Positions 19,538 through 57,870 of a stretch of 64,000 nt of DNA are shown here, piece after piece. This DNA is from Escherichia coli (GTDB taxonomy: Bacteria > Pseudomonadota > Gammaproteobacteria > Enterobacterales > Enterobacteriaceae). A program made the translations under genes and the position numbers. Numbering within the stretch: the stretch's first letter is position 1; every line of letters starts with the position of its first letter. The notes under the pieces are model-generated. The model ran no database searches and was not told the origin of the DNA. It saw nothing but the letters and a program-made list of their open reading frames with translations. The DNA lies in the NCBI RefSeq assembly GCF_048403405.1, contig NZ_CP183131.1. One strand, 5' to 3'.

Positions 19538-19556
19538 AGAGCGTTTTATTTGTCAA

Positions 19557-25025: not shown

Positions 25026-25625
25026 ATGAGCAACGCAAAAACAAAGTTAGGCATCACAAAGTACAGCATCGTGACCAACAGCAACGATTCCGTCACACTG
25101 CGCCTCATGACTGAGCATGACCTTGCGATGCTCTATGAGTGGCTAAATCGATCTCATATCGTCGAGTGGTGGGGCGGAGAAGAAGCACGCCCGACACTTG
25201 CTGACGTACAGGAACAGTACTTGCCAAGCGTTTTAGCGCAAGAGTCCGTCACTCCATACATTGCAATGCTGAATGGAGAGCCGATTGGGTATGCCCAGTC
25301 GTACGTTGCTCTTGGAAGCGGGGACGGACGGTGGGAAGAAGAAACCGATCCAGGAGTACGCGGAATAGACCAGTTACTGGCGAATGCATCACAACTGGGC
25401 AAAGGCTTGGGAACCAAGCTGGTTCGAGCTCTGGTTGAGTTGCTGTTCAATGATCCCGAGGTCACCAAGATCCAAACGGACCCGTCGCCGAGCAACTTGC
25501 GAGCGATCCGATGCTACGAGAAAGCGGGGTTTGAGAGGCAAGGTACCGTAACCACCCCATATGGTCCAGCCGTGTACATGGTTCAAACACGCCAGGCATT
25601 CGAGCGAACACGCAGTGATGCCTAA
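25026..25625 (+). CDS. aac(6')-Ib-cr: aminoglycoside/fluoroquinolone acetyltransferase AAC(6')-Ib-cr
   Basis: 199 aa, recognised sequence. Carries both cr substitutions: GDGRWEEE (Trp102Arg) and TTPYGPAV (Asp179Tyr). Confidence 0.9.
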
Positions 25626-25691
25626 CCCTTCCATCGAGGGGGACGTCCAAGGGCTGGCGCCCTTGGCCGCCCCTCATGTCAAACGTTGGGC
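25620..25691 (+). other. attC (59-be) of the aacA4 cassette
   Basis: GCCTAAC ... GTTGGGC inverse core/core sites with internal symmetry, 72 bp. Similar attC elements follow blaOXA-1 (about 26608-26695) and catB3 (about 27350-27415). Confidence 0.7.
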
Positions 25692-25755
25692 GAACCCGGA
25701 GCCTCATTAATTGTTAGCCGTTAAAATTAAGCCCTTTACCAAACCAATACTTATT

Positions 25756-26586
25756 ATGAAAAACACAATACATATCAACTTCGCTATTTTTTTAATAATT
25801 GCAAATATTATCTACAGCAGCGCCAGTGCATCAACAGATATCTCTACTGTTGCATCTCCATTATTTGAAGGAACTGAAGGTTGTTTTTTACTTTACGATG
25901 CATCCACAAACGCTGAAATTGCTCAATTCAATAAAGCAAAGTGTGCAACGCAAATGGCACCAGATTCAACTTTCAAGATCGCATTATCACTTATGGCATT
26001 TGATGCGGAAATAATAGATCAGAAAACCATATTCAAATGGGATAAAACCCCCAAAGGAATGGAGATCTGGAACAGCAATCATACACCAAAGACGTGGATG
26101 CAATTTTCTGTTGTTTGGGTTTCGCAAGAAATAACCCAAAAAATTGGATTAAATAAAATCAAGAATTATCTCAAAGATTTTGATTATGGAAATCAAGACT
26201 TCTCTGGAGATAAAGAAAGAAACAACGGATTAACAGAAGCATGGCTCGAAAGTAGCTTAAAAATTTCACCAGAAGAACAAATTCAATTCCTGCGTAAAAT
26301 TATTAATCACAATCTCCCAGTTAAAAACTCAGCCATAGAAAACACCATAGAGAACATGTATCTACAAGATCTGGATAATAGTACAAAACTGTATGGGAAA
26401 ACTGGTGCAGGATTCACAGCAAATAGAACCTTACAAAACGGATGGTTTGAAGGGTTTATTATAAGCAAATCAGGACATAAATATGTTTTTGTGTCCGCAC
26501 TTACAGGAAACTTGGGGTCGAATTTAACATCAAGCATAAAAGCCAAGAAAAATGCGATCACCATTCTAAACACACTAAATTTATAA
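25756..26586 (+). CDS. blaOXA-1: class D beta-lactamase OXA-1
   Basis: 276 aa starting MKNTIHINFAIFLIIANIIYSSASA. STFK and KTG motifs. Sequence recognised as OXA-1. Confidence 0.9.
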   Translation: MKNTIHINFAIFLIIANIIYSSASASTDISTVASPLFEGTEGCFLLYDASTNAEIAQFNKAKCATQMAPDSTFKIALSLMAFDAEIIDQKTIFKWDKTPKGMEIWNSNHTPKTWMQFSVVWVSQEITQKIGLNKIKNYLKDFDYGNQDFSGDKERNNGLTEAWLESSLKISPEEQIQFLRKIINHNLPVKNSAIENTIENMYLQDLDNSTKLYGKTGAGFTANRTLQNGWFEGFIISKSGHKYVFVSALTGNLGSNLTSSIKAKKNAITILNTLNL

Positions 26587-26723
26587 AAAATCTAATGGCA
26601 AAATCGCCCAACCCTTCAATCAAGTCGGGACGGCCAAAAGCAAGCTTTTGGCTCCCCTCGCTGGCGCTCGGCGCCCCTTATTTCAAACGTTAGACGGCAA
26701 AGTCACAGACCGCGGGATCTCTT

Positions 26724-27356
26724 ATGACCAACTACTTTGATAGCCCCTTCAAAGGCAAGCTGCTTTCTGAGCAAGTGAAGAACCCCAATATCAAAGTTGG
26801 GCGGTACAGCTATTACTCTGGCTACTATCATGGGCACTCATTCGATGACTGCGCACGGTATCTGTTTCCGGACCGTGATGACGTTGATAAGTTGATCATC
26901 GGTAGTTTCTGCTCTATCGGGAGTGGGGCTTCCTTTATCATGGCTGGCAATCAGGGGCATCGGTACGACTGGGCATCATCTTTCCCGTTCTTTTATATGC
27001 AGGAAGAACCTGCATTCTCAAGCGCACTCGATGCCTTCCAAAAAGCAGGTAATACTGTCATTGGCAATGACGTTTGGATCGGCTCTGAGGCAATGGTCAT
27101 GCCCGGAATCAAGATCGGGCACGGTGCGGTGATAGGCAGCCGCTCGTTGGTGACAAAAGATGTGGAGCCTTACGCTATCGTTGGCGGCAATCCCGCTAAG
27201 AAGATTAAGAAACGCTTCACCGATGAGGAAATTTCATTGCTTCTGGAGATGGAGTGGTGGAATTGGTCACTGGAGAAGATCAAAGCGGCAATGCCCATGC
27301 TGTGCTCGTCTAATATTGTTGGCCTGCACAAGTATTGGCTCGAGTTTGCCGTCTAA
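26724..27356 (+). CDS. catB3: xenobiotic (chloramphenicol) acetyltransferase CatB3, full length
   Basis: 210 aa, hexapeptide-repeat acetyltransferase, recognised as CatB3. It is not IS26-truncated here. Confidence 0.9.
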
Positions 27357-27440
27357 CAATTCAATCAAGCCGATGCCGCTTCGCGGCACGGCTTATTTCA
27401 GGCGTTATGCAGCCAAATCCCAACAATTAAGGGTCTTAAA

Positions 27441-27587
27441 ATGGTAAAAGATTGGATTCCCATCTCTCATGATAATTACAAGCAGGTGCAAGGACCGTTC
27501 TATCATGGAACCAAAGCCAATTTGGCGATTGGTGACTTGCTAACCACAGGGTTCATCTCTCATTTCGAGGACGGTCGTATTCTTAAG
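27441..27587 (+). pseudogene. arr-3: rifampicin ADP-ribosyltransferase arr-3, 3'-truncated by IS26
   Basis: First 49 codons (MVKDWIPISHDNYKQVQGPFYHGTKANL...) run directly into the IS26 IR at 27588. Confidence 0.8.
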
Positions 27588-28407
27588 GGCACTGTTGCAA
27601 AGTTAGCGATGAGGCAGCCTTTTGTCTTATTCAAAGGCCTTACATTTCAAAAACTCTGCTTACCAGGCGCATTTCGCCCAGGGGATCACCATAATAAAAT
27701 GCTGAGGCCTGGCCTTTGCGTAGTGCACGCATCACCTCAATACCTTTGATGGTGGCGTAAGCCGTCTTCATGGATTTAAATCCCAGCGTGGCGCCGATTA
27801 TCCGTTTCAGTTTGCCATGATCGCATTCAATCACGTTGTTCCGGTACTTAATCTGTCGGTGTTCAACGTCAGACGGGCACCGGCCTTCGCGTTTGAGCAG
27901 AGCAAGCGCGCGACCATAGGCGGGCGCTTTATCCGTGTTGATGAATCGCGGGATCTGCCACTTCTTCACGTTGTTGAGGATTTTACCCAGAAACCGGTAT
28001 GCAGCTTTGCTGTTACGACGGGAGGAGAGATAAAAATCGACAGTGCGGCCCCGGCTGTCGACGGCCCGGTACAGATACGCCCAGCGGCCATTGACCTTCA
28101 CGTAGGTTTCATCCATGTGCCACGGGCAAAGATCGGAAGGGTTACGCCAGTACCAGCGCAGCCGTTTTTCCATTTCAGGCGCATAACGCTGAACCCAGCG
28201 GTAAATCGTGGAGTGATCGACATTCACTCCGCGTTCAGCAAGCATCTCCTGCAGCTCACGGTAACTGATGCCGTATTTGCAGTACCAGCGTACGGCCCAC
28301 AGAATGATGTCACGCTGAAAATGCCGGCCTTTGAATGGGTTCATGTGCAGCTCCATCAGCAAAAGGGGATGATAAGTTTATCACCACCGACTATTTGCAA
28401 CAGTGCC
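27588..28407 (-). mobile_element. IS26 (copy 2)
   Basis: 820 bp, perfect 14-bp IRs. tnp26 at 27640..28344 on the minus strand. Inverted relative to copy 1, direct relative to copy 3. Confidence 0.95.
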
Positions 28408-28729
28408 GTAATTATTTAGGATATAGCTCTGTGATTTAGTCTTTTTAGGGCGTTTATTTATGTCTTTATGCTGTAATGTCGGTGCTGATTTGGTCTTCAA
28501 TAAGGCGATTTTTAGCCCGCTTTTTCCGGGGGGATGAAATGTTATTGGATTGCTAAATGATTTCAAAAAAGGGGTAACATAGAGCGGGGATTAGTGTGGC
28601 GAGGCGCAGGTTTCCGATGGCAGGCTAAACGCAAAAAATGCGCTTTTTAGCCGGTGATGAGGTGAGGCCGGGAGGGGATGCGTCGCCGATCACAGTTTAC
28701 AACAGGGTTTGATAACGGGAGGAAAAGTC

Positions 28730-29146
28730 ATGCTGCAGGGATTGAATCATCTGACGCTGGCGGTCAGCGATCTGGCGTCAAGCCTGGCATTTTATCAGCA
28801 GTTACCTGGAATGCGCCTGCACGCCAGCTGGGATAGCGGAGCCTATCTCTCCTGTGGGGCGCTGTGGCTGTGCTTGTCGCTGGATGAGCAGCGGCGTAAA
28901 ACGCCCCCTCAGGAAAGCGACTATACCCACTACGCCTTCAGCGTGGCGGAAGAAGAGTTTGCCGGGGTGGTGGCTCTGCTGGCGCAGGCGGGGGCTGAGG
29001 TATGGAAAGATAACCGCAGTGAAGGGGCGTCTTACTATTTTCTCGACCCTGACGGCCATAAGCTGGAGCTGCATGTGGGGAATCTGGCGCAGCGGCTGGC
29101 CGCCTGTCGCGAACGCCCCTACAAGGGGATGGTCTTTTTTGATTGA
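28730..29146 (+). CDS. fosA3: fosfomycin glutathione S-transferase FosA3
   Basis: 138 aa ([34 protein letters not shown]...). Recognised as FosA3, in the usual IS26-bounded context with Kluyvera-derived orf1, orf2 and truncated orf3. Confidence 0.9.
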
Positions 29147-29150
29147 CGGG

Positions 29151-29669
29151 TTAGTTCAGCTTACTGCCGGATTTCAACGTGCAGATCCACAGCGGTGAAT
29201 TGATAGAGCTGAGCAAGATAGCCTTTTCGTTGAGCTTCTGAGCGTTGAGAAACAGCCCGTCGTGGCTGTCGGACATCTCGCGCATAAAGTAGTCGAAAAT
29301 CACGTTCGGCGATTCATCAATCGAGGAGGCGCTCGATTCCCACTGATTGATGCGGTAATGACGCTCGGTGGCCGAGATGCGTTTGCTGCTGTAGGTAAAC
29401 TTCACGTAGCGTTGCAGGTAGAGCCAGCCGGCGGCGGAGTCGGTGTAACCTTCGACCACCATCGAGCCCTTACCCTGCGCGCCAAAATTGAAGTGAATAT
29501 TGCCGTTAACGTTCTCTTTGTCCATGTTCTCAAAGCGCATGATGCCCTTAGTGGAACAGCTCATGACACCCGCGTTGTCGGCAGGCAGCAGCCGCCAGGC
29601 GCTAAACGCGGCGGCGGCAATAAATACCAGAACGCAGAGGGCAAAGAACGGACGCGGCGCGAGTCTCAT
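29151..29669 (-). CDS. hypothetical secreted/membrane-anchored protein (fosA3-module orf1)
   Basis: 172 aa with an N-terminal hydrophobic signal/anchor (FFALCVLVFIAAAAF). Fixed partner of fosA3 modules. Confidence 0.6.
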   Translation of the reverse strand: MRLAPRPFFALCVLVFIAAAAFSAWRLLPADNAGVMSCSTKGIMRFENMDKENVNGNIHFNFGAQGKGSMVVEGYTDSAAGWLYLQRYVKFTYSSKRISATERHYRINQWESSASSIDESPNVIFDYFMREMSDSHDGLFLNAQKLNEKAILLSSINSPLWICTLKSGSKLN

Positions 29670-30457
29670 TACGGCTTCCAGGAGTAGTAAAAGTAGTTAT
29701 CGCAATAGCTGAACGGGTTATCTTCATGCATGGCGCAGTGGGCAAGGAACACGCGCCCCAGCCCGTTGGTTTCGAGCCGATCGCCGTAGAAGAAAAGAAA
29801 ACGTTCACCGGGTTTACAGGCAATATTCAGCCGCTGGCGTACCTCATCGAAGTTTTTGCCGTAGGACTCTTCACTGACCGAACGTCGCATTTCATCGCTG
29901 GCCAGCAGTTCGCACTGGCTATGGCTGAGGCGGGTCAGCGCGATAGGCTGGGATTCACTGATGCCGACCAGACTGAAGGCAACCAGAAGCAGGGCAATGG
30001 TGAGCAAGCAGGCTCCGGCCATGTACCAGCACATCCCGCGAGCATGTGCGGAGCGCGGTGCGTCTGGCGTTGTCGTAACGGGCGGCGGTTCGGCAGGCGT
30101 CTGTTGTGGTGAAACCGGCGGCGCGTCGTCCAGCGCTTCGATAATGACCTCGGGATTAAGCTGCAAATAGCCGCGCGAGACGGTGACGATGATGTTATCG
30201 ACGCCGTAATGGCGAAAGGTCTTCCGCAGCATGCTGAGATACTGATTCAGATTGCTGTTGGATGAGGTTAATCCATTGTCATCCCAGACTTTTTTCAGAA
30301 CATCTTCCCGGCTGACAATCTCGGTATGGCGCAGAAAATAGTTAAACAGGGCGCTGGCGGTGAGGGATAGCTGGCTGTCCGGTTCATCGCTTTGCGGCAG
30401 CGTCAGGGTTCCGTCGGTGGCGTCGTAGATAAAACGGGCATTGATGTTGTAGCGCAT
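29669..30457 (-). CDS. CadC/ToxR-like membrane-bound winged-helix regulator (fosA3-module orf2)
   Basis: 262 aa. N-terminal OmpR/PhoB-type winged helix (LTASALFNYFLRHTEIVSREDVLKKVWDD...VSRGYLQL), a central TM helix, and a periplasmic C-terminus. Confidence 0.65.
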   Translation of the reverse strand: MRYNINARFIYDATDGTLTLPQSDEPDSQLSLTASALFNYFLRHTEIVSREDVLKKVWDDNGLTSSNSNLNQYLSMLRKTFRHYGVDNIIVTVSRGYLQLNPEVIIEALDDAPPVSPQQTPAEPPPVTTTPDAPRSAHARGMCWYMAGACLLTIALLLVAFSLVGISESQPIALTRLSHSQCELLASDEMRRSVSEESYGKNFDEVRQRLNIACKPGERFLFFYGDRLETNGLGRVFLAHCAMHEDNPFSYCDNYFYYSWKP

Positions 30458-30476
30458 CGCGGCCTCAGTCTGTGCT

Positions 30477-30904
30477 TCACGCGGGAAGCGTCATTTTATT
30501 CAGGGAGTCAACCAGCGCGCGACGGTGGTCGGCGCTCATGGTGATCCCTTCCGTCAACTCCGAAAGCCAGATGCCGTCAGCGGCGTAGCGCACCAGCGTG
30601 CCGGTTGGGCTGTTATCCAGCTCATCGCCCTGCGCCAGTTTCTCCAGCATCCAGTCGCGCCAGCATTTGCGCAGCACCGGTTCATCGGGCATTGCCAGCG
30701 ACAAAACCATAAGCTGGCGGCTTTCATGGGTGTCCGTGAGATCCGCCAGATAGTTCAGATAGGCGCGGGTAAACCGGCCATAGCTCACGCCATCCTGTTG
30801 CATCAGCGCGGTAATCGCTTCTTCCATGATTGCCAGCAGACGCGCGAACAGGGCGAATATTAGCGCCTGCTTGTTCGGGAAATGGTGGATAAGGCCGCCT
30901 TTAC
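30477..30904 (-). pseudogene. TetR-family regulator, 5'-truncated by IS26 (fosA3-module orf3 remnant)
   Basis: Only the C-terminal ligand-binding part plus the tail of the HTH (HHFPNKQALIFALF) remains. The apparent N-terminus of the track ORF is IS26 IR sequence. Confidence 0.7.
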
Positions 30905-31724
30905 GGCACTGTTGCAAAGTTAGCGATGAGGCAGCCTTTTGTCTTATTCAAAGGCCTTACATTTCAAAAACTCTGCTTACCAGGCGCATTTCGCCCAGGG
31001 GATCACCATAATAAAATGCTGAGGCCTGGCCTTTGCGTAGTGCACGCATCACCTCAATACCTTTGATGGTGGCGTAAGCCGTCTTCATGGATTTAAATCC
31101 CAGCGTGGCGCCGATTATCCGTTTCAGTTTGCCATGATCGCATTCAATCACGTTGTTCCGGTACTTAATCTGTCGGTGTTCAACGTCAGACGGGCACCGG
31201 CCTTCGCGTTTGAGCAGAGCAAGCGCGCGACCATAGGCGGGCGCTTTATCCGTGTTGATGAATCGCGGGATCTGCCACTTCTTCACGTTGTTGAGGATTT
31301 TACCCAGAAACCGGTATGCAGCTTTGCTGTTACGACGGGAGGAGAGATAAAAATCGACAGTGCGGCCCCGGCTGTCGACGGCCCGGTACAGATACGCCCA
31401 GCGGCCATTGACCTTCACGTAGGTTTCATCCATGTGCCACGGGCAAAGATCGGAAGGGTTACGCCAGTACCAGCGCAGCCGTTTTTCCATTTCAGGCGCA
31501 TAACGCTGAACCCAGCGGTAAATCGTGGAGTGATCGACATTCACTCCGCGTTCAGCCAGCATCTCCTGCAGCTCACGGTAACTGATGCCGTATTTGCAGT
31601 ACCAGCGTACGGCCCACAGAATGATGTCACGCTGAAAATGCCGGCCTTTGAATGGGTTCATGTGCAGCTCCATCAGCAAAAGGGGATGATAAGTTTATCA
31701 CCACCGACTATTTGCAACAGTGCC
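30905..31724 (-). mobile_element. IS26 (copy 3)
   Basis: 820 bp, perfect IRs. tnp26 at 30957..31661. Flanks (GCCTTTAC / AAATGCTC) are not a target duplication. Confidence 0.95.
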
Positions 31725-32005
31725 AAATGCTCCTTAAGGAACTCGATGCGTACGCCGCGCTGGGTGAGGCCCTGCACCAGGCGGCGCAGGTCGTCGAGGT
31801 TGCGCGCCAGACGATCCATGCTGTGCACCACGACCGTGTCGCCTTCGCGCACGAAGGCGAGCAGCCGTTCCAGTTCGGGCCGCCGTGTGTCCTTGCCCGA
31901 CGCCTTGTCGGTGAACACTTTATCCACCTGGATCTGTTCGAGCTGCCGTTCTGGGTTCTGGTCGAAGCTGCTGACGCGGACGTAACCGATGCGCTGACCG
32001 TGCAA
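31725..32005 (-). pseudogene. tnpR: serine resolvase tnpR, 3'-truncated by IS26
   Basis: TTG start after AGGAGG. About 93 N-terminal codons with the catalytic GYVRVSSFDQ motif, cut by IS26. Confidence 0.8.
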
Positions 32006-32269
32006 GGTATCCTCCTGAGGGAAATGTGTCAGGAAGAAATCTATGACCCTTGACGGCGTATGTCAATCAATTCGGAAGGCAACTCTATTCTGACGATTTA
32101 GCGCCGGATGGTCTGACGCCAAGTTAGGGTATAGCCTAGATTGACATGCGCGATGCAACCCTTAACTTGCTTGCACCTATCGTTTCCATGCTAGCTTTAT
32201 CGTAACGCTCAAGAAATTGGGCTTAATGCCGAAAACAATAAAATAAAACAGCCAACCCTTGAGGTTCTT
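32006..32269. promoter_or_regulatory. res / divergent promoter region of the Tn1721-like element
   Basis: Intergenic region between divergent tnpR and mcp, where Tn21-subgroup res sites lie. Individual subsites were not resolved by eye. Confidence 0.5.
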
Positions 32270-32876
32270 ATGCGCCAGAATTTACCAGTGACGGGTCGAA
32301 ACTTAGAACTCCCAAAAGATGCCAATATTCTTTCGACTACCTCCCCTCAAAGCCATATCACGTACGTTAATCCTGACTTCATTAAAATCAGTGGTTTCAC
32401 TGAGGAAGAACTATTAGGCCAGCCTCACAACATCGTAAGACACCCAGATATGCCGCCTGCTGCATTTGAGCATATGTGGAGTACATTAAAATCTGGCCGC
32501 TCATGGATGGGGCTAGTAAAAAATCGCTGTAAAAATGGCGACCACTATTGGGTAAGTGCTTATGTAACGCCAATAGCTAAGAATGGTTCGATTGTTGAAT
32601 ACCAGTCTGTAAGGACCAAGCCTGAACCTGAGCAGGTTTTGGCTGCGGAAAAATTATATGCTCAATTGAGAAGCGGGAAGGCCGCGAGGCCGAAATTGGC
32701 TGCTAGCTTTTCCGTGAAAATACTCTTGCTCATATGGGGTAGTATTATATCAAGCGCAATGGCTGCCGGCATGCTTACTGATACATCAATAAGCAGCTTA
32801 TTGTTACCAGGAATCAACGCCTTTACCCGCTGCCGGAGCCTCACCTCAATAGCACTCTCCGGCAGCCGTATTGTTA
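32270..32876 (+). pseudogene. mcp: methyl-accepting chemotaxis protein (Tn1721 orfI-like), 5' part
   Basis: N-terminal PAS domain (FIKISGFTEEELLGQPHNIVRHPDMP...GDHYWVSAYVTPI) and first TM helix. Interrupted after 32876 by the ISEcp1 unit. Confidence 0.75.
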
Positions 32877-33971
32877 CAGCGAATCAAACTGATAGCTGAC
32901 CGATAGCCCAACGCCATAGTTACGGCCCGGCGCCGGTTCATAATAGCGTCCGTTGCTCTCGTTGACGATAACAGAGCCGACGTAGCGCTTATCAAACAGG
33001 TTATCAACGCGCGTATAGAGGTCGACGGTCCAGTTATCTAGCACATATTTATAGCCGGTATTCAGTGCCGTCACCGTATAGGCTGGAGCCTGCTCGCTAT
33101 TGGCATCGTTGACCTGAATATCGCTCATATAGCGGACTTCAGCGCCAGCGTACCATCCCTCTTCCGGCACCCAGCCAAAGGAGGCATAGGCGCTATTACG
33201 TGCAATCCCCGGGATCCGATTGCCGCTCTGAATAGCATCGCCGGCGTTTTCACGGTAGGTCGCATCCAGCAGCGTCCACGCCAGTTTGGCGCGCCAGGCG
33301 GGCGCAAATTGCTGATCCCATCCCAGTTCGACCCCGCGGCGGCGCGTCTTGCCCGCGTTCTGATAGGACGTACGGCCATTGTCGCTGGCGGCAACGACAA
33401 TTTCATTTTTCGTGTCCGTATTGAAGACGCTCAGGCTCGCCATCCCGGTGCCCACCTGCCATTTACTGCCTGCTTCAACGGTGGTGTTAGTGGCCGGTTG
33501 CAGAGCAAAGTTAAGCCCGGACTGACCATCGGGACGATAGGACAGCTCGTTAATGGTCGGCGTTTCAAATCCCCTCCCGGCAGAGAGGTAAACGTTCCAC
33601 TGCGGCGTCATGGCATACTTCAGCGCTGCCGCCGGAAGCCACTTGTGATAGCTCGCTTCGCCGCTATCATCACCATTTTTACCTACAACATAACGATCGT
33701 TGGAATCAAACCATACCGAGCTATAGCGCGCCCCGGCGTCCAGCCCCAGGGCTGAGGTGAGCTGCCAGTGCGTTTGAATGTAGGGATCGAGGTTCCACAT
33801 CAGGTTACGTTCGTTACGTCGCATATCACCTTTGGTGCCGAGATCGTAAACGCCGTTCTGATAAACAAAGTTCTCATAGCCTTTGCGCTGTTCGGTCATC
33901 GCCTCGTAATCAAGGCCGGTGGTGATGGCGTAAGGGATAAAACCGCTGTCATCGTGGTGTGTCCAGCGCGT
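32877..33971 (-). pseudogene. TonB-dependent outer-membrane siderophore receptor, C-terminal fragment (iroN-like)
   Basis: About 365 C-terminal codons of a beta-barrel receptor ending ...GVGLSVSYQF-DSL. The N-terminal part is removed by IS903 at 33972. Passenger DNA of the ISEcp1 unit. Confidence 0.75.
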
Positions 33972-35028
33972 GGCTTTGTTGAATAAATCAGATTTCGGGT
34001 AAGTCTCCCCCGTAGCGGGTTGTGTTTTCAGGCAATACGCACGCTTTCAGGCATACCTGCTTTCGTCATTTTGTTCAGCGCTCGTACCAGGGCCATAGCC
34101 TCCGCAACCTGACCATCGTAGTCACGCAGCGTCAGTGAACCCCCGAACAGCTGTTTTACCCGGTACATCGCCGTTTCCGCTATCGAGCGACGGTTGTAAT
34201 CTGTTGTCCATTTCCACCGCGCATTACTCCCGGTCATTCGCTGATTAGCCACTGCACGGTTACGGTCTGCATATTCACCGGGCCAGTAACCCGCACCTTT
34301 TCGGGGCGGGATAAGCGCGCTGATTTTCTTACGCCGCAGTTCATCGTGACAGAGCCGGGTATCGTAAGCTCCATCGGCGGCGGCTGACCTGATTTTCCGG
34401 TGGGTTTGCCGGATTAACCCGGGGAAGGCCTCTGAGTCCGTAACGTTGTTCAGCGACAGGTCAGCGCAGATGATTTCATGTGTTTTACTGTCAACTGCCA
34501 GATGCAGCTTACGCCATATACGACGGCGTTCCTGGCCATGCTTTTTGACTTTCCACTCGCCTTCACCGAAGACCTTCAGCCCGGTGGAATCAATTACCAG
34601 GTGTGCGATTTCACCCCGGGTGGGCGTTTTGAAACTGATATTAACCGACTTTGCCCGCCTGCTGACACAGCTGTAATCCGGGCAGCGTAGCGGAACGTTC
34701 ATCAGAGAAAAAATGGAATCAATAAAGCCCTGCGCAGCGCGCAGGGTCAGCCTGAATACGCGTTTAATGACCAGCACAGTCGTGATGGCAAGGTCAGAAT
34801 AGCGCTGAGGTCTGCCTCGTGAAGAAGGTGTTGCTGACTCATACCAGGCCTGAATAGCTTCATCATCCAGCCAGAAAGTTATGGAGCCACGGTTGATGAG
34901 GGCTTTATTGTAGGTGGGCCAGTTGGTGATTTTGAACTTTTGCTTTGCCACGGAACGGTCTGCGTTGTCGGGAAGATACGTGATCTGATCCTTCAACTCA
35001 GCAAAAGTTCGATTTATTCAACAAAACC
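33972..35028 (-). mobile_element. IS903-group element (IS5 family), 1057 bp
   Basis: Terminal IRs GGCTTTGTTGAATAAATCAG (33972-) and the reverse complement of GGTTTTGTTGAATAAATCGA (-35028). Transposase ORF 34028..34996 recognised as IS903/IS102-like. Confidence 0.9.
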
Positions 35029-36072
35029 TTTTTCTGGTTTCAGTACGCGAGATACGACAAATCTTCTGTCTTTTTCCCATTTAACTAATTTTGTATACAG
35101 TTCTGTAGTTTCTCTACCTTCTTCTCCTTTAACGAATACAATTGATGAATTCGTTGCTTGTGAGGTGAGTGTAGAATAACTTTTGGCTTTAATTAAATAT
35201 TTGCATCCAAGAGATTCTATCGTTTCGATAATTTTTTCATCAAAGTAGCCACTATCCATTCGAAATAAAATTTCTAAATCGTCTGATTTGATGTTAGCAA
35301 CAATTTCTTTGATCATTTCCGCAGCACCGTTTGCAGTGTAAGTATTGCCACTTCTTACAAATCCGGTAACATATGCTTTTAATTCGTCGCAAAATGCAAA
35401 TTGGATATTGTAGCATCGGTTTCCCAGTTTCTTAGGATTATATCCTTTTGACGCACCTTCTTGATGACCTTCTACGTTAATTACACTACTATCAATATCA
35501 ATCGTAATGGATGTCAATTTACTTTTAGTGAGCAGTTTTTTAAAGACTTTAAAATTAATGTCTCTAAACATTTGGGTTGTCTTGAAGTTGAAGTTTCCTA
35601 GAAACCGTGACACTGTTTCAGGTTCTTTTACGGAAATATCAAACTCGTTGACGAGGGGATCATTTTGAAGTAGCTTTAGACGTTCTAACTTATCAATGCC
35701 AATGAAGTGACCGCAGAGCATGGTCTTTATATGATTCATCTTGATTTTATTTGTTGAGTCATTATCAAATACGAGGTCATTTTCAATAAAATCAAAAATC
35801 CCATTGCTTTTTGCATTCTCAAGGAGCAGAAAAAGACCTGCATTTGATGTTAGATTCTTAGCTTTGAAATCAATTTTATTAATCATAATTAGAACCCCTT
35901 TTTACTACTTTTCTTACTATTATTTTACCATATATCGAGTCATAAAAGCTGATAATTTAACATATTTTTGAGCACTTTTCTTTCACCCAATGGGTGAAAG
36001 CTGAATTTCGAAGGAATGCATATTTATCAAGGCTTTGATTATGCTTTTTGAAGTACTGACGTAGAATCTAGG
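35029..36072 (-). mobile_element. ISEcp1 (IS1380 family), 3'-truncated by IS903
   Basis: IRL CCTAGATTCTACGTCAGTACTTCAAAAAGC ends at 36072. The transposase ORF (35014..35886, start at 35886) matches ISEcp1 Tnp (MINKIDFKAKNLTSNAGLFLLLENAK...) for about 286 of 420 codons, to the IS903 end at 35028/35029. Confidence 0.9.
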
Positions 36073-42875: not shown

Positions 42876-43328
42876 TCAGGGTTTGCTTTGAGAAACAACT
42901 TCATTCCAAGTATGCAGCACCTTCGATAGGTGCTGATGCTTTCTGGTGAAGTCCTTATCATCCAAGAGTGCTTTAAATGGCGCGTTCAGGTCACTGCATG
43001 TGACGTTCTTGCCGATCACAGACAGGGTATCCTGGAGTGATCCACCAGCAGCATCAAGCCCCATTCTATCGACGGTCTCACTACTCACCATTGCCTGGAC
43101 AACATTGGTGAATGCCTTTGAGTTGAGCTGCTCAACGCTCAGGGCTGTATTGCATTTCTGCTCAACCGCTTGCTTGTACTGGATGGTGTACTTTGCAGTG
43201 ATAGGTGACATGGTGTTCATCGCAAGTATGTATGCGTCTACCTCACTGGTCGGTAATGTCGCGGCATAGACTGACGAGCATGATGCGGCTGCGGCCATTA
43301 TCAAAGTTATTACCTTCTTATTCTTCAT
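42876..43328 (-). CDS. secreted protein / possible lipoprotein
   Basis: 150 aa. Signal sequence MKNKKVITLIMAAAASCSSVYA with a lipobox-like AASC. Confidence 0.55.
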   Translation of the reverse strand: MKNKKVITLIMAAAASCSSVYAATLPTSEVDAYILAMNTMSPITAKYTIQYKQAVEQKCNTALSVEQLNSKAFTNVVQAMVSSETVDRMGLDAAGGSLQDTLSVIGKNVTCSDLNAPFKALLDDKDFTRKHQHLSKVLHTWNEVVSQSKP

Positions 43329-43494
43329 TTCTCTGAAATCCCCCTTTAAAATATGGAGCTACAACTCATTTGTACCAATCATAATACTATTGATTTCCAA
43401 AAGTATCTCTCTCTACTGACTCTATGATGGCTCGCCTTCCAAACACTTGGCCGCTGGCGGCGGCTGGGCCAACGCCAGAGCCTGATCCACACTA

Positions 43495-43794
43495 TCATCC
43501 GCCTGAAAAAAATCTCATTACCTCTGACGGATAAAGAAACAGATTTCCCCCTTTGGCAAAAAACAGATACCAAACAGAAAAAGCCACAGAAAAAACACCT
43601 GCAACACACACTTCAAATCTATTTCTTGCAGAGAAATACTTGTAGTGCTTTTTTTCGTATCTCGGGGCTCTCATTTTGACTAGATTTTTCAATGTCAACC
43701 AAAGAAAGATAACCCCAGTAGGAAGGATAACTATCACAACCCCAAAGAAATAAATTGTGTATATAATAAAATCAAACCAGTTATTGATTTCCAT
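43495..43794 (-). CDS. small membrane protein (possible orphan immunity protein)
   Basis: Start taken at MEINNWFDF (43794). 3 hydrophobic segments. Visibly AT-rich DNA downstream of the Rhs immunity region. Confidence 0.4.
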   Translation of the reverse strand: MEINNWFDFIIYTIYFFGVVIVILPTGVIFLWLTLKNLVKMRAPRYEKKHYKYFSARNRFEVCVAGVFSVAFSVWYLFFAKGGNLFLYPSEVMRFFSGG

Positions 43795-43841
43795 AAGCCG
43801 TCCCCAATGCTGCGCCAATAGCAGAACCATGTGAGCCGTAT

Positions 43842-45283
<1,442 letters not shown>

Positions 45284-45287
45284 CTTA

Positions 45288-45560
45288 TTATTTATCTATA
45301 TGTTTTGAAATCTTATCTACAATGGATGTAGTATCCATATTCATTATCCTCCCTGCTTTTTCAATCAGAAACTCAGCTTCATTTGTTATGTTCTTTGACT
45401 CTTCATTAATAATGTCAATGATAGTTTCTAGTGCGATTCCATACTCACCCACATCAATAAATTCTTGCACTTCTATACTTTCAGATTCAGAAAACGAATC
45501 AGACAGCACCATAAGCAAAAGATCTAGCGTGGATTCAATTTCTCTATATTCATTTTTCAT
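45288..45560 (-). CDS. putative Rhs immunity protein
   Basis: 90-aa acidic protein whose ATG overlaps the rhs stop (ATGA). AT-rich like the rhs toxin tip. Assignment is positional. Confidence 0.6.
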   Translation of the reverse strand: MKNEYREIESTLDLLLMVLSDSFSESESIEVQEFIDVGEYGIALETIIDIINEESKNITNEAEFLIEKAGRIMNMDTTSIVDKISKHIDK

Positions 45561-48500
45561 TTTGGATTCCTTGGTACGTTTGTTGGAAAACCTGAAACAA
45601 TATCACCATTAGATTCTTGTATTACACGAACATTAATACCTTCTTTAACTGCCTCTGCAATAGTCCTACCACCGCGCCCAGCCTTTCGAGAAACATTTGG
45701 ATCGGTAGCTATATCGGAAATGACGTGCATAATTTTTTCATCAGACCAACTTTGAGGAAACTCACTTTTTCCAGGCTTGCCTGTTCCTGCTCGATGCCCT
45801 CCACCAGTGGCGTCACCATCAAGAATATGCTTACGTCTCTGGGAACTGGCTAGGTCTACAAAATCATCAGCCGTATTTTTAAAAGCGCGTTCCGCAACAT
45901 TCCCTAGCGCCTTATAGTTGCCAGGCAGGATAATCCCAGCAGCAAAAAGCCCCCCGGAAATCCACTTTTCTCTTGAGGTCGCACAATCACTGGTGATGGT
46001 CTTGAAGGTGTCATAGGCGTCCCAAGCGCTCAAGGCAAAGTCTATGGCAACATAAGCCCCCAGAAGAAGCGGCACAAACTCCCCTGTTGGATCTGCATTG
46101 CCTATCGGGTTGCTCAGCGCATAGGCATAGGTGTTAATCCCACCAGCCAGCCCAATCGGGTCACTGGTGATGTAACGCCCGGTATTCGGGTCGTAGTAAC
46201 GCCGCCAGTTGTAGTGGAGCCCGGTCTCCGCGTCGTAATACTGTCCTGGGAACCGCAAATTGAAGGTCGGCCCCTGAGTGGTGATGCTGGCCTTACCGAA
46301 CGGGCTGTAGCTCGCCTTCCAAACCACTTGGCCGCTGGCGTCGGTTAGCGCCTTCGGGGTGCCCAGATGATCGACGTGGACTTGATAGGTCTGTCCTGAC
46401 TGAGCAAAGCTCAAGGGGGTGCCATCGAGCCAGATATACTCCGCCAGCACGTCTCCAGTGGCTGCGTCCAGCTCCTCGATGAGGTTTCCTGCCAAGCCGT
46501 AAATCAGTAGGCGGGTCTGGCCGTTTAGGGTCTTAGTTACACGCTGATCCAGATGGTTGTAGGTGTAAGCTGCTGTCACTCCAGCGACCGTTGCGGCCAC
46601 CAGCCGGTTCTGGCTGTCATAGGTGAAGGTATCCGCCCCCTGCTTCGTCAGGTTGCCATTGGCGTCATAGCTTCTGGAGGTTTGCCCAGTCTTCACCAGC
46701 CAGTTGTTCATGTAGTTGATGGTGTAGCTTTGGCTCAGGCCATCGGTCGTGATCGAGGTCCTGTTGCCGGTGGCGTCATAGCCATAGCCCAAAACGCCAT
46801 AGAGCCCCTCAGCAGAGGTGATGCGGCCAACCGCGTCATAACCGAGTGACTGATTGACTGATGAGCTGAGATTGTCGTCTATGGCTGAAATCAACGAGTC
46901 TGGCGTGTACCGATAGACCAGCGAATGCACTCTAGTAGCGTCGATGCCGGTGACTCGGTAATTGAGATCCAAAGAGCGACTTTCTGAAATGCCGTTCCAT
47001 CTGACCATACTGGTGACGGGGCCAAAGGGCGCTCGCTCGATCTGGCTTGCCAGGCTTGTTGTGGTGCCTGCTTGTGTCGTTGCCACCTCGATGACGTCAC
47101 CGGCTAAATCACGGGTGTAGGAAACCTCACGACCACTGGGATACGTGATCTTCGTGATGAGGCCTGCACCATCGTATTGGTACTGGGTAGTAAGGCTCTG
47201 CCCGTGGGTTTCCCAGGTCTCGTAAGCCAACCATCCTTCGGGTGTATAGCCATATCTCCGGACACCGTTGCCATCATCGACTGAGGTCAAGCGGCCCATG
47301 CCGTATGGTGAGGTTGCTTCGTCGTACCCGTACAGAATTGGCGATTCGCCAGCGACACCGCTGGATGCCTCGATGATCCGGTTCAGCGCGTCGTAGCTGT
47401 AGCTTGTGGTTTGTCCCTTGGCCGTCTTGCGCGTTGCCACGTTACCGGCTTCGTCATAGGTAATGTCGGTGGTGCCGGTGTCCGGGCTCCGGACCTGAGT
47501 CACTTCGCCAAAGCCGTTGTAGCTGTAGTAGGTCAGGCGCGAACGAGGGTCGGAGACACGGTAAACATCGCCGGTATCCTTGTAGAGCACCTGCGTGACC
47601 TTCCCGAGTGGATCGGTCGTTTGTGTCCGGTGATGGAAGCCGTCGTACTTGTAGGAGTGTGTGTTACCAGAGGGACTGGTCTCCTGTATCAGGTTTGCCA
47701 CCACATCGTAGGAAAACGATGACTGATTGCTATAGGCGTCGGAGACACTGGAGAGCCAGCCGATTTCGTTGAAGATCCGGCGCTCTATCCAACGGGTCTG
47801 GCCCAGCGCATCGAGCAGTCGCTCTTCTACTGGGTTCCCGAGGTCATTGAGCTCAAGCTCGCGCCGGTTGCCCTGTGCATCTGTTTCCGCCACCAGCCGA
47901 TGTGCAGCGTCGTACTCATAGCTGACGGTTGCACCATTTGGCTTAGTCAGCGAGCTCAGGAGGCCCACAGCATCATAGTTGTAGGCCGTGGTTCCTTCTG
48001 GTCCAGTGGAGCTGACAAGTCTTCCTCTGGCGTCATAGGTGAGGGTTTGGGTTACACCGTTGACGCCCTGAATGGTCCCGGCGCGACCGTTCGCGTCGTA
48101 GTCACCAAACTGCATCACCTGCCCCAGCGCGTTTGTTGTCCGGATCAGGTTGCCCTGGTCATCGTAGTCAAATGTCGTAACATCGCTGACGTCGGTGCGC
48201 GGACCATCAACCGAGGCCAACAGGCTCGGCTTTCCTGTACCAACAGGGGCATAGGTGTAGGTCCATGTCCGGGAAGCGCCCGAGCTGCGATCTGTGACCT
48301 TGCGGCTTATCACCCGGAGATGAGTGTCGTAGGTAAGCTCAGTGATCCTGGTTGGTTCCGTGATTTTTGCAGGGAGCGACTTGGAAGGAAGCCAGTCGGT
48401 CGTAACCTTGCCCCCATCCTGGTCTATCTGGGTGGTTTCCAATCCCCGGTCGTTATGGGTGAACGTGCGCTTCTGTCCAGCACGATCTGTAATGCTGGAG

Positions 48501-49819
48501 ACGAGGCCTTTGCTGTCGTAGACGTAGGTTTCCTTGCCTCCCACAAAGCCGGTACACGGCGCACCCTCAACAACATCAGGCTTGAGCATCCCGTTGTGAC
48601 GGCTGTAGGTATATCGCTGAACGTGGCCGAGGGCGTTGGTGACAGAGACGCTTCCGTCAGCGTTGTAGCTTACCTGAGTCTTCTCTGCGCCCCCGGCGTG
48701 TTCACTTAGAACTGCCATCCCCTGAGCATCATATCCCCATGTGGCGAAACGGTTGCCGTTCTCGTCCACCAGCCCAGAGAGCAAACCCGGTGCATTCGGG
48801 TCATCGTAGAGATAGCTGCGGCTCGTATTGTCCTGGTAGATCACTTCCGCCAGCTTGCCAGCGCTGTTGTACTGGTACTGAATACTGCCACCAGCAGGAT
48901 CGGTGACACTGACCATGCGGCCATCTTGATGCTGGAACTGGATGTTGCGGCCAAAGCCGTCAGTGATCGAGGATAGCTCTCCGTTCAGATAGCTCAGGGT
49001 GATGTGATTGCCGTTGGGCTTCTCGATGCCGGTCAGTCGTCCGGTTTCATCATAGGCCTCGACTACCCCGTCAGATTGAGTGTAACGCCAGCCGGTAGCA
49101 TCCTTCGTCAAGGTATCATCGGTTTTCCATGTTGGCACCCAGACAGAGGACGAGTTGTAGAACGCGAGTTGTTGCCCTTCTGGCCGGTGCAGGACAACCA
49201 TGTTCTCACCGTACTTCGAGGCGTTGACCTCGACGCTCCGCGAGTAGGTATGCCGCCAGCCGCCGAGCTCTTCATCAGGAAGGTGGCTATTGTAGTATCT
49301 GGTGAATGTGAAAGGGTCGGAGCCTCCGCTTTGATAATCCAGTTCAGCCTGGAACTTGTTGCCGGTGCCAAGATGGATAGGGTTCCCTACACACATGGTC
49401 GTTGTTGGTAAGCCGAGATCCCTGTCCAGGAACGGTGTTTTATCCATCTCACCCGGCAGAACATAGGTTGAGCGCCAGTAGACCGTAGCTGGGTCGCCAG
49501 TGCAGGTAGTGGGGTCATAATCGCCAGTAGCACCTAGATACTTAAAACAGATCCTGGAGACATAACGGCCATCACCATAACTGGCAACCGGATAAAGCGC
49601 ATCCCCAACTGGCGTTCCCTTCCCTTGCTCCTCACCAGAGCGATAATTCTTCATGAAGGAATGCGCGTCTATGATGGTGTTGAAGCGCATTTTGTCTACT
49701 TCGGTGCTCACGGCTACAACCCGCCATTGTGCAAAAGCAACGCATGGCAAAGTTGCGAGCACCACAACGGCCAATGACCGCAGGTTTCGCATCAGTAAAA
49801 GGGAAGGTCTCGATCTCAT
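45557..49819 (-). CDS. rhs: Rhs/YD-repeat polymorphic toxin with EndoU-like C-terminal domain
   Basis: 1420 aa. Signal peptide, dozens of YD repeats, and the core-ending motif [28 protein letters not shown]. The variable tip has [13 protein letters not shown]...[14 protein letters not shown], reminiscent of bacterial EndoU nucleases. Confidence 0.85.
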   Translation of the reverse strand: [1420 protein letters not shown]

Positions 49820-49951
49820 TTACAGCTCCAGTTTTTATGCTGGAGCTATTTTCAGGTGGGAGAGTCGTTATCAACGACTGCGTTTTTGCCCTTTTAGGGT
49901 ATGAATACGTGATTTGGAGAGGTTGTGTATTCAGAACAAATGAGAAGCAGG

Positions 49952-50677
49952 TTACTCATTTCGCTCAAACACTGTGACAAGAACACGTTTTTGGTTGTCG
50001 TCGTTGATCACCATCAGGTACTTGAACTTGGAATCTCTATGGCCCCAGACTTCCACGTTATCTACGCGGCCATACTTTCTGGCTTTATGGCGAGCCACTT
50101 TCTCGTCAAAGGGTTGAACCTGTAACTCTGGATGCTGGAGGCGACCAACGAGTGAGGCCCACGGTTTTTTAGGGTCTCCAGAGGTTATCCGGGCCTGATA
50201 CTGATCGATGGCATGTTGAGTAACAAGGACGGGACCAATGGCCGGTGTAGAGATTTCGTCATGGGTTTGAGTATAGGCTTGCTTGTCCACATCGAGGAGC
50301 TCAACGTTGCCCTCACCCGGCTCATCCATAAACTCCATGCTCTGCGAAACTTCAATAGTAGCGCCCTTTAAACGTCCAGTGAGGCAAGCCGCAAACTTGA
50401 ATGCAAACTCCTTGGTGGATTTGCCCAGCGCCAGCTTTTTAATCGCACCTTTGGATACCACCAGCTTGTAACCAGCACCAGCACCTGGCTCTCTGCAAAA
50501 AACCTGTTTGTCCAGCGCCAGATAGCGAATGGCTACGAGCTCAGCCAAAAGATCTGCCTCCTCGTTGTCAAAATCAATACGAACATCAAGGATGCCTTTC
50601 CGTTTTGTACCAACGCGCCAGAATACAAGGGCTGAATTATTAGAAGTTTTCTTCGAGACAGTAGTCAGTGTCATCAT
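49952..50677 (-). CDS. hypothetical protein
   Basis: 241-aa ORF with GGAGAAATAGACC before the ATG. Promoter-like GGGGTTGCATTTTTAAAA core upstream (50763-50780). Confidence 0.5.
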   Translation of the reverse strand: MMTLTTVSKKTSNNSALVFWRVGTKRKGILDVRIDFDNEEADLLAELVAIRYLALDKQVFCREPGAGAGYKLVVSKGAIKKLALGKSTKEFAFKFAACLTGRLKGATIEVSQSMEFMDEPGEGNVELLDVDKQAYTQTHDEISTPAIGPVLVTQHAIDQYQARITSGDPKKPWASLVGRLQHPELQVQPFDEKVARHKARKYGRVDNVEVWGHRDSKFKYLMVINDDNQKRVLVTVFERNE

Positions 50678-57669: not shown

Positions 57670-57840
57670 GCTTCTCTCCTTTGTTTGTGGGAGAGAACCC
57701 AGGAGGGGTTTCCTCCCGAGGGGTTAGGTTATTGCTGTTTTGGGCCAGCTACCGTTATAGCCAGCAAGCGCTGACAATGAACAAAGAGTATGACAGCCAC
57801 CTAAAAGGGTAAAACGCTGTAATTGCCCTTTTGGGGTGCA
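57670..57840 (-). promoter_or_regulatory. structured leader, instance 8, plus promoter-like box
   Basis: After the terminator at 57841-57870: CGGTAGCTGGCCCAAAACAGCAAT (57731-57754), CTAACCCCTCGGGAGGAAACCCCTCC, then the SD stem. Confidence 0.5.
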
Positions 57841-57870
57841 AAAGAAAAAGCCCTCCCGAAGGAGGGCTTT
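57841..57870 (-). terminator. rho-independent terminator after the DndC-like gene
   Basis: Minus strand: TAA-AAAAGCCCTCC-TTCG-GGAGGGCTTTTTCTTTT. Confidence 0.8.

Follow-up and report, generated by a model that had tools for sequence, protein, structure and literature searches.

The stretch analysed here, hereafter the window, comprises 64,000 nt of Escherichia coli contig NZ_CP183131.1 (RefSeq assembly GCF_048403405.1) and carries on its minus strand a locus whose main product is the Rhs protein of rhs1, the variant found on type 1 IncC (IncA/C2) plasmids. The locus encodes a 1420-amino acid (aa) Rhs protein, a 90-aa MafI-family protein whose gene overlaps the rhs stop codon, an 80-aa two-helix membrane open reading frame (ORF) interrupted by an insertion sequence (IS), and a 99-aa membrane ORF (Table 1). 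All the features described in an initial annotation of this DNA proved to be present where it had placed them, and only small corrections were needed. With the IS excluded, the region is 100% identical to that of many IncC plasmids from Klebsiella, Escherichia, Vibrio, Proteus, Photobacterium and other hosts. A copy of rhs1 with 99-100% protein identity was found in about 370 plasmid records, and the carriers of rhs are mainly enteric and aquatic bacteria.

The rhs1 locus is already known and has been partly interpreted. It is a standard typing marker, with rhs1 or rhs2 and a downstream variable region ("R2") separating type 1 from type 2 in the IncC literature, and its immunity gene has been named by the Prokaryotic Genome Annotation Pipeline (PGAP). 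The 1.5-kb VR7 region of pVCR94 was noted in 2014 to code for an EndoU_bacteria-domain protein, predicted to be a secreted toxin (PMC3915882), and the dependence of vcrx128-vcrx129 on the activator AcaCD is contained in a published supplementary table (PMC4207636). The searchable literature returned no functional study of an IncC Rhs protein, none that explicitly ties the toxin-immunity operon to the regulon of conjugation, and no description of the cassette boundaries or of relic evidence for orphan immunity genes.

Table 1. Features of the rhs1 locus, in window coordinates.
Feature	Coordinates	Strand	Details
AcaCD activator box	49878..49906	-	ATTCATACCCTAAAAGGGCAAAAACGCAG; mapped from pVCR94deltaX 94587-94615
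AcaCD-dependent transcription start	49841..49842	-	22 nt upstream of ATG 49819; 5' rapid amplification of cDNA ends (5'-RACE) position 94651-94652, mapped by coordinates
rhs1 coding sequence (= vcrx128 of pVCR94)	45557..49819	-	1420 aa; from ORF list, Pfam and NCBIfam
Predicted Sec-type signal peptide	49730..49819	-	aa 1-30: basic N-region, hydrophobic stretch, cleavage motif AFA/Q (cleavage before Q)
Lineage-restricted N-terminal domain	49388..49729	-	aa 31-144; Cys91 and Cys106 invariant in the alignment; without Pfam family
DUF6531 domain	49160..49387	-	aa 145-220, N-terminal edge of the Rhs shell; PF20148, 50.7 bits
YD-repeat shell	46310..49159	-	aa 221-1170; Pfam RHS_repeat in 13 stretches, TIGR01643 (YD_repeat_2x) in 8 stretches
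RHS-associated core	46079..46309	-	aa 1171-1247, end DPIGL...DPTGE; left boundary of exchangeable cassette
Pre-toxin module	45881..46078	-	aa 1248-1313, two hydrophobic stretches; without Pfam family
Predicted EndoU-family (BECR-fold) ribonuclease (RNase) toxin domain	45560..45844	-	aa 1326-1420; catalytic candidates H1331, H1342, K1351
Candidate mafI-family immunity gene (vcrx129)	45288..45560	-	90 aa, isoelectric point 4.2; start overlaps rhs stop as ATGA
80-aa two-helix membrane ORF (WP_000750746), 5' part	45229..45283	-	includes one CTAA copy
ISKpn26 (IS5 family)	44034..45228	+	1195 bp; transposase 44102-45082 (+); CTAA at 44030-44033 and 45229-45232
80-aa membrane ORF, 3' part	43842..44033	-	rejoined ORF identical to 6543-6785 of comparison locus L001
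Relic of displaced glycine-rich Rhs toxin tip	43781..43840	-	last 19 codons (YGSHGSAIGAALGTAYGNQ, then stop); overlaps 99-aa ORF start
99-aa membrane ORF (WP_011872911)	43495..43794	-	predicted orphan immunity gene of displaced glycine-rich tip
Frameshifted Rhs core relic (ASGQV-WKAS)	43429..43463	-	right boundary of type 1/type 2 cassette, from alignments

The initial annotation had credited the Rhs protein with a signal peptide, YD repeats and a DPxGL-type core end, and searches against Pfam and NCBIfam located domains consistent with this description. The repeat family PF05593 matched the YD-repeat shell repeatedly (E = 2.7e-79), and the RHS-associated core TIGR03696 covered aa 1171-1246 with 89.5 bits. 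The core carries the motif DPIGLAGG...DPTGE at aa 1220-1247, followed by a variable C-terminal domain, and a sequence search of solved structures matched it to Rhs cores including 7q97 and 8h8a. Purifying selection acts on this core, whose ratio of nonsynonymous to synonymous substitution rates (dN/dS) is 0.16 against rhs2, its type 2 counterpart. Judged by its sequence, the locus possesses all the defining features of an Rhs polymorphic toxin system.

At the N-terminus, a hydrophobic segment was detected at aa 12-37, and homologues of 47-85% identity retain the basic N-region, the hydrophobic stretch and an A-x-A/QWR cleavage motif. The following domain is very narrowly distributed. An exhaustive search with aa 32-144 against 1.84 billion representative proteins returned only 12 relatives at E<=0.001, indicating that this domain is almost unique to the plasmid lineage; three low-identity matches that spanned the full domain were the N-termini of proteins of 313-1404 aa. 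The invariance of its two cysteines, Cys91 and Cys106, fits an exported protein. A word-indexed homologue search with aa 1-262 returned seven fragments and revealed nothing on architecture, and an AlphaFold model of aa 31-262, built from a five-sequence alignment, was unusable (mean predicted local distance difference test score of 39.7).

The tip beyond the core had been estimated at about 220 aa and is in fact 173 aa long (aa 1248-1420). It encompasses a 66-aa hydrophobic pre-toxin module, which the initial annotation did not report separately, and a 95-aa nuclease domain. The module, with a hydrophobic segment at aa 1248-1266, is helical at low confidence in the structure model and is 82% identical to the equivalent position of an Aeromonas Rhs fragment whose toxin is Tox-SHH. 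Its occurrence in Rhs proteins with a different toxin class marks it as a separable module.

The nuclease domain matched EndoU_bacteria (PF14436) over aa 1344-1413 with 36.2 bits, above the gathering cut-off of 25.3, in an alignment restricted to profile positions 63-128 of 129. A homologue search with this domain identified 204 relatives. PF14436 was present in 117 of the 120 listed, the other three matching the pre-toxin module only, and among these 120 the PF14436 relatives occur on Rhs cores, on PT-HINT domains or as stand-alone orphans. The two tip motifs that the initial annotation had associated with EndoU toxins lie at aa 1331-1343 and 1350-1363, and an alignment of 55 sequences revealed that H1331, H1342, K1351 and S1352, a His/His/Lys set with the accompanying Ser/Thr position, are at least 90% conserved. 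The best structural matches of the modelled domain were the CdiA-CT RNases 6cp9 and 8ey4 (score 7.6), followed by colicin D (6.5), BrnT (6.2) and Nsp15 (5.1); the EndoU toxin CdiA-CT of STEC_O31 (5hkq) scored 5.6, with the highest sequence identity among the top ten (23%). A sequence search of solved structures run with the tip matched the Rhs core part only. The reading of the tip as EndoU-like hence gains support from the profile, the retained catalytic residues and the structural matches to BECR-fold RNases including 5hkq, and it can safely be described as a predicted RNase toxin of the BECR fold whose assignment to the EndoU family comes from the sequence profile. The G+C fraction falls to 0.33-0.41 over the tip and the small-ORF region.

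The acidic 90-aa ORF had been proposed as the likely immunity protein, and its family assignment and genomic linkage agree with this proposal. The protein matched the MafI family (NCBIfam NF033691) with 64.5 bits, against a cut-off of 31, over the full 67 positions of the profile; a sequence search of solved structures with it returned nothing significant. In the genomes of Salmonella, Massilia and Methylicorpusculum encoding tip homologues of 54-61% identity, the next gene codes for an NF033691 member in all three cases, and these proteins (89-91 aa) are 35-40% identical to the one in the window. The persistence of the EndoU-MafI pairing in three divergent genomes points to a conserved cassette. 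With a MafI-family gene at the rhs stop and orphan remnants downstream, mafI presents itself as a candidate cognate immunity gene, predicted from its ATGA overlap to be translationally coupled to rhs.

Published data on pVCR94 connect this operon to conjugation. The 241-aa ORF upstream of rhs, rhs, mafI and the 150-aa ORF downstream are exact matches of vcrx127, vcrx128, vcrx129 and vcrx130, for which Dataset S1 of PMC4207636 gives lengths of 726 nt (vcrx127), 273 nt (vcrx129) and 453 nt (vcrx130). In that annotation vcrx128 occupies 94839-98936, from a late start codon, and shares 4 nt with vcrx129 (98933-99205). For vcrx128, Table S3 of the same study reports a peak in chromatin immunoprecipitation with exonuclease treatment (ChIP-exo), an AcaCD motif at 94587-94615 (p = 2.5e-9) and a 5'-RACE start at 94651-94652, and we mapped box and start onto the window using the stop codons of vcrx127 and vcrx128 as anchors. 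On pVCR94 the box lies 64 nt upstream of the transcription start, the promoter-proximal position of a class II activator. Expression of vcrx128 was 0 in an acaCD deletion and 349 on induction, and the operon was defined as vcrx128-vcrx129 (PMC4207636). According to these published data, the rhs-mafI operon is off in the absence of AcaCD, the master activator of conjugation, and is switched on by it. The link between Rhs and conjugation drawn in the initial annotation is hence strengthened by data from ChIP-exo as well as 5'-RACE on the same operon.

To evaluate the conservation of this box, we used a weight matrix built exclusively from five published AcaCD boxes of SGI1 and MGIVmi1. The matrix recovered all five published sites of the stretch (vcrx114, vcrx128, vcrx140, traF and vcrx152) at the published spacing, and scored the rhs box at 17.2 bits. 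A box was found at the same distance upstream of the Rhs gene in type 2 IncC (18.8 bits), Photorhabdus (17.2 bits) and Shewanella profunda (19.3 bits). Of five further relatives from Vibrio and Shewanella, four have a weaker box (13.6 bits), and that of Vibrio mytili is reduced to 4.6 bits by the deletion of one base. The retention of the box in these relatives suggests that co-expression with transfer genes is a conserved property of the Rhs lineage. A sigma-70 promoter scan of 43300-50100 detected no more sites than in shuffled sequence, which fits an activator-dependent promoter and adds nothing further. Elsewhere in the window, the matrix sites of vcrx152, traF, vcrx140 and vcrx114 lie at 8387-8419, 19511-19543, 21790-21817 (-) and 57815-57842 (-), and one extra site was detected at 1915-1942 (+).

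Most characterised Gram-negative antibacterial Rhs toxins are type VI secretion system (T6SS) effectors, and the closest solved Rhs cores are all T6SS-associated. Many IncC hosts (Vibrio, Klebsiella, Proteus) possess a T6SS, so that the plasmid Rhs protein could be conceived as a conventional effector, a cargo fired into neighbouring cells by the chromosomal T6SS of the host. The Rhs protein, however, carries no PAAR domain (no Pfam match at E<=0.1), nor any other T6SS-adaptor domain. VgrG, Hcp and Eag genes were absent from the flanks of rhs, and T6SS families from the 24 ORFs scanned among the 34 window ORFs of at least 230 aa, in agreement with the initial annotation, which had seen no T6SS genes; the scanned ORFs include an AcaD-like protein, TraG, TraH, TraF, KfrA, Ter proteins and the resistance island. 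The cleavable-looking Sec signal peptide and the cysteines, both conserved, suggest a periplasmic location, which is a poor fit with cytoplasmic loading onto a spike, the N-terminal domain is restricted to the plasmid lineage, and expression is tied to the conjugation activator. We accordingly regard delivery as a conventional T6SS effector as unlikely, and infer from the sequence features that the protein would leave by Sec and a T6SS-independent route.

The same domain searches bear on a relation to the insecticidal ABC toxin complexes. Some database records name the protein a putative insecticidal toxin complex, and its RHS core resembles TcC and YenC2 cores in sequence. Yet Pfam detected neither VgrG-binding nor SpvB or TcdB domains in the Rhs protein, no SpvB, TcdB (TcdB_toxin_midN) or TcA domains occur in it or its neighbours, the tip is a predicted bacterial RNase with a dedicated candidate immunity gene, and most hosts of the plasmids are enteric or aquatic bacteria. 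It is extremely unlikely that the protein constitutes a TcC-like component of such a complex.

Comparison of the rhs tips of type 1 and type 2 IncC plasmids, which the initial annotation had suggested, revealed that the two types differ by exactly this cassette. The type 2 protein, rhs2, is 95.6% identical to rhs1 up to about aa 1263, and an ungapped comparison places the break directly after DPTGEF, at aa 1248. Downstream, the rhs2 locus encodes an unrelated tip and a 140-aa ORF, and lacks mafI and the 80-aa and 99-aa ORFs. The two types become identical again from a 35-nt Rhs core relic, CCG(C/A)CGCCAGCGGCCAAGT-GTTTGGAAGGCGAGCC, at window positions 43429-43463. Divergence after the core and recovery of identity at the core relic indicate that the difference between types amounts to the replacement of a toxin-immunity cassette. 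Nucleotide differences between rhs1 and rhs2 are concentrated in the last 122 codons of the core (55, against 0-20 per 125 codons elsewhere), a pattern to be expected when a gene that is under purifying selection receives a tip along with some adjoining core sequence.

The rhs2 tip and its 140-aa partner, which yielded no Pfam or NCBIfam match, are an uncharacterised toxin-immunity pair of type 2 plasmids. In the type 2 IncC comparison locus (L003, 8700-9666), the tip shows two glycine-zipper-like hydrophobic stretches followed by ELHHW...HPWN...IHQNIH, and from the ELHHW...H pattern it is suspected to be an HNH-type nuclease. A search of solved structures with this tip returned no significant natural match, and a designed protein (E = 2e-08) in which no stretch passed on its own.

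Direct activation by AcaCD together with the tra operons could also be taken to mean that Rhs serves mainly in conjugation, as a YD-repeat adhesin of the envelope or surface or as a stabiliser of mating pairs, and that its toxin tip is incidental. The signal peptide, the purifying selection on the core and the presence of Rhs and its upstream box at the same position in MOBH/MPF_F plasmids with very different tips are compatible with such a role. Plasmids with an interrupted rhs nonetheless transfer, and many interrupted copies have been documented in the literature. The exchange of tips with their own immunity genes and the accumulation of orphan arrays are the signature of selection for toxin-immunity specificity, and the catalytic residues are intact. 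A primarily conjugative function appears improbable on this evidence.

The history of the cassette can also be traced in the small ORFs downstream of mafI, which the initial annotation had tentatively considered orphan immunity genes or remnants of displaced toxin tips. This idea is borne out for the 99-aa ORF and is likely for the 80-aa ORF, through homologues in orphan arrays devoid of EndoU and MafI. The 99-aa ORF is preceded by a toxin 3'-end relic and followed by a Rhs core relic. On a Vibrio alginolyticus MOBH/MPF_F plasmid, a 48%-identical Rhs protein bears a glycine-rich hydrophobic tip that ends in YGSAIGSAGGTTIGNQ before the stop codon, to which the relic end YGSHGSAIGAALGTAYGNQ is comparable in translation and DNA alignment, and a 99-aa paralogue (MEINNW...) overlaps the Rhs stop, in the immunity position. 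The same plasmid encodes three further paralogues, one of them 80% identical to the IncC ORF, and two paralogues are preceded by fused scraps of Rhs core. In Shewanella profunda, a 92%-identical Rhs protein is followed by an orphan array that includes a 90%-identical copy of the 99-aa ORF, with the same core relic after this copy. Given the toxin-end relic before it, the core relic after it and paralogues in the immunity position in Vibrio and Shewanella plasmids, the 99-aa ORF is firmly identified, at the level of sequence, as a predicted orphan immunity gene of a displaced tip, which was probably membrane-acting. A Vibrio orphan tip and its 94-aa partner showed no relation to EndoU or MafI.

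Homologous signal-peptide Rhs proteins are found more widely on MOBH/MPF_F plasmids and elements of Vibrio and Shewanella (comparison loci L004, NZ_CP014052.1 8007-15620; L007, S. profunda 9971-19200; and L008-L011). Extended arrays of small membrane ORFs and orphan tips lie behind them, with up to four 99-aa-family paralogues, some joined to pieces of Rhs core (DVLYLYGLDGELLARLWG-MEINNW).

The 80-aa ORF had been described as an 81-aa gene starting five nt after the immunity gene; it encodes 80 aa, and four nt separate the immunity stop from its ATG. As previously noted, its halves rejoin in frame once the IS is removed: excision of the IS with one CTAA copy joins 45283..45233 to 44033..43842 and restores a 243-nt ORF with no mismatches to the intact gene of pT212. 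A homologue of 85% identity occurs in metagenomic Rhs orphan arrays, beside another orphan tip and a Cys_rich_CPCC gene, and a 26%-identical relative is present in the Shewanella array. The 80-aa ORF is hence likely to be a leftover immunity gene, on circumstantial grounds. An obligate partnership with EndoU and MafI was considered for it and rejected, given that the 85%-identical copy resides in arrays without either.

The interrupting element had been called IS5-like, with a CTAA duplication. Both the family and the duplication stand, and its identity can be refined to ISKpn26, since annotated ISKpn26 copies match it at 100% identity and an IS5 copy at only 92%. Its ends form inverted repeats that are perfect over the terminal 12 bp (GGAAGGTGCGAA) and agree at 22 of the outer 40 bp, its transposase belongs to PF01609 (DDE_Tnp_1), and its size, inverted repeats and 4-bp YTAR duplication are those of the IS5 family. 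The ISKpn26 junction was absent from the 72,556 plasmid records of PLSDB. In the one partial match, the IncC plasmid pCR14_2 (L005, NZ_CP015394.1, 3001-4100), which has apparently lost the rhs side, another IS5-family element, ISKpn13, occupies the same CTAA site in the 80-aa ORF. The shared site and the unique junction suggest a recurrent IS5-family target and a recent insertion in the window, where ISKpn26 has left rhs and mafI intact.

These insertions raise the question of whether the locus is a decaying, functionless passenger, a hotspot of recombination and insertion that hitch-hikes on the plasmid backbone. IS elements and resistance islands often insert in this region, as ISKpn26 has done here and ISKpn13 in pCR14_2 at the same CTAA, and the relics of older cassettes reveal ongoing erosion. 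Decay is nevertheless hard to reconcile with an intact 4.3-kb ORF shared at 99-100% protein identity by some 370 plasmid records, with the dN/dS of its core, with the retention of the catalytic residues and of the apparent translational coupling to the immunity gene, or with an activator-dependent promoter that is conserved in relatives whose Rhs proteins are only about 46-48% identical. We consider it very unlikely that the locus is such a passenger.

Overall, these results make it likely that the locus is the rhs1 polymorphic-toxin system of a type 1 IncC conjugative plasmid, activated by AcaCD and accompanied by a mafI immunity gene, and that it operates as follows. While the mating apparatus is built, the Rhs protein would be exported by Sec into the periplasm or envelope of the donor. 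With the DPxG...DPxG motif present at the end of the core, the Rhs cage would cleave the tip autoproteolytically and retain it, and the tip would then be freed into a neighbouring cell through a T6SS-independent route. The hydrophobic pre-toxin module may aid passage of the tip over the inner membrane of the target, where the RNase would cleave RNA in the absence of MafI. Plasmid carriers and cells acquiring the plasmid would be protected, and plasmid-free neighbours would be harmed.

Several observations weigh against this polymorphic-toxin interpretation. Nothing identifies the step that would move the Rhs protein out of the donor and into the target, and the signal peptide is deduced from sequence and conservation only. 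PGAP places the start 36 codons downstream, at the GTG of V37 (window 49709-49711), which yields a protein of 1384 aa; the annotation of pVCR94 starts further downstream still, and both starts remove the conserved signal peptide. The long ORF, whose ATG at 49819 is preceded by a GGAG Shine-Dalgarno sequence at 6 nt, is favoured on account of the published transcription start 22 nt before M1 and of the conservation in homologues. The searched literature contained no toxicity, RNase, immunity or secretion experiment on the IncC rhs1 protein, and the RNA-seq replicate counts behind the published expression values are very noisy (PMC4207636). No toxin relic was found in front of the 80-aa ORF. Lastly, a near full-length rhs is present in about three quarters of IncC copies in PLSDB (708 records with at least 80% protein coverage among about 915 with at least 90% identity), and about one quarter are truncated or interrupted; a plasmid whose rhs is interrupted by 122 kb of inserted DNA remains able to conjugate, indicating that rhs is dispensable for transfer.

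A further reading, which we hold to be rather unlikely, would make Rhs a conjugation-coupled weapon that is produced under AcaCD along with the mating apparatus, is exported by Sec into the donor envelope and reaches its partner at or through the mating junction by means of its lineage-specific N-terminal domain instead of a T6SS, with recipients that establish the plasmid gaining mafI and surviving. If this were so, partners that reject, restrict or exclude the plasmid would be poisoned together with plasmid-free bystanders, which would amount to a toxin-enforced reward for plasmid uptake and to a new delivery route for Gram-negative Rhs proteins.

IncC plasmids play a major part in carrying resistance genes, those for carbapenemases included, and their rhs, used as a typing marker for a decade, can now be approached through the testable hypothesis of an intact RNase toxin-immunity operon that is transcribed solely upon activation of the transfer genes and whose toxin leaves the cell independently of a T6SS. 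An active toxin could shape survival beside donors, coexistence of plasmid types and persistence without antibiotics, and would illustrate how a Gram-negative cell delivers a signal-peptide Rhs protein; with an inactive toxin, the locus would stay a typing marker and an insertion hotspot. Interest now centres on the possible action, and its mechanism, of a predicted Rhs RNase, putatively exported by Sec and produced solely in conjugation, upon neighbours or recipients.

The 150-aa ORF downstream (vcrx130, WP_000791469; 42876-43328, -), with a signal-peptide-like start (MKNKKVITLIMAAAASCSSVYA), bounds the Rhs region on the right in both IncC types. Of the five Vibrio and Shewanella relatives examined, four have it in the same role at 59-61% identity, and the retrieved flanks of Vibrio mytili (L010) and of the closer relatives L006 and L007 did not contain it. 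Expression of vcrx130 in pVCR94 was about 10-fold higher on acaCD deletion, and vcrx127 was not induced by AcaCD (PMC4207636). The latter corresponds to the 241-aa ORF directly upstream of rhs (49952-50677, -), which matched no family, is 97.5% identical in Photorhabdus and has copies of about 60% identity in two Vibrio relatives, at another position relative to Rhs. A resistance or accessory island (22600-36000) lies between kfrA and ter, with a Tn3-family transposase and further DDE transposases. It contains three copies of a 240-aa ORF (24205-24927, 27640-28362 and 30957-31679) that we take to be IS26, as well as a beta-lactamase-like ORF (25711-26586, Transpeptidase domain) and fragments of a TonB receptor and of a methyl-accepting chemotaxis protein.

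Among known systems, the closest is vcrx128-vcrx129 (VR7) of pVCR94, which is the same gene, the copy in the window differing by the ISKpn26 insertion in the 80-aa ORF. With T6SS Rhs effectors (7q97, 8h8a, Tse5, Tse15) rhs1 shares the YD shell, an N-domain at the edge of the shell, the DPxG...DPxG core, the variable toxin at the C-terminus, the immunity gene behind it and the orphan arrays. It departs from them in its predicted Sec signal peptide, its lineage-restricted N-domain and its control by a conjugation activator, and by its sequence it lacks both the PAAR or VgrG linkage that defines T6SS Rhs effectors and the defining feature of TcC subunits. The best structural matches of the nuclease domain, the CdiA-CT BECR RNases (6cp9, 8ey4, 7m5f, 5hkq) and the colicin D tRNase, are each accompanied by a dedicated small immunity protein.

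A MafB/MafI system of Neisseria likewise combines an EndoU-family C-terminal tip with a small downstream protein named MafI. MafB of MGI-1 NEM8013 is an EndoU RNase whose secretion depends on its signal peptide and which is neutralised by its own MafI (PMC4287609). Neisseria MafB, however, carries DUF1020 at its N-terminus and lacks the Rhs cage of rhs1. WapA of Bacillus subtilis and Streptococcus, an Rhs-repeat toxin that uses the general secretory pathway and not a T6SS for export, resembles rhs1 as interpreted here, but is wall-anchored and Gram-positive, whereas a Gram-negative producer of rhs1 needs an additional step at the outer membrane. Signal-peptide Rhs polymorphic toxins, designated type II secretion system ('T2SS') toxins, have been catalogued as a class by comparative genomics (Zhang et al. 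2012, PMC3482391).

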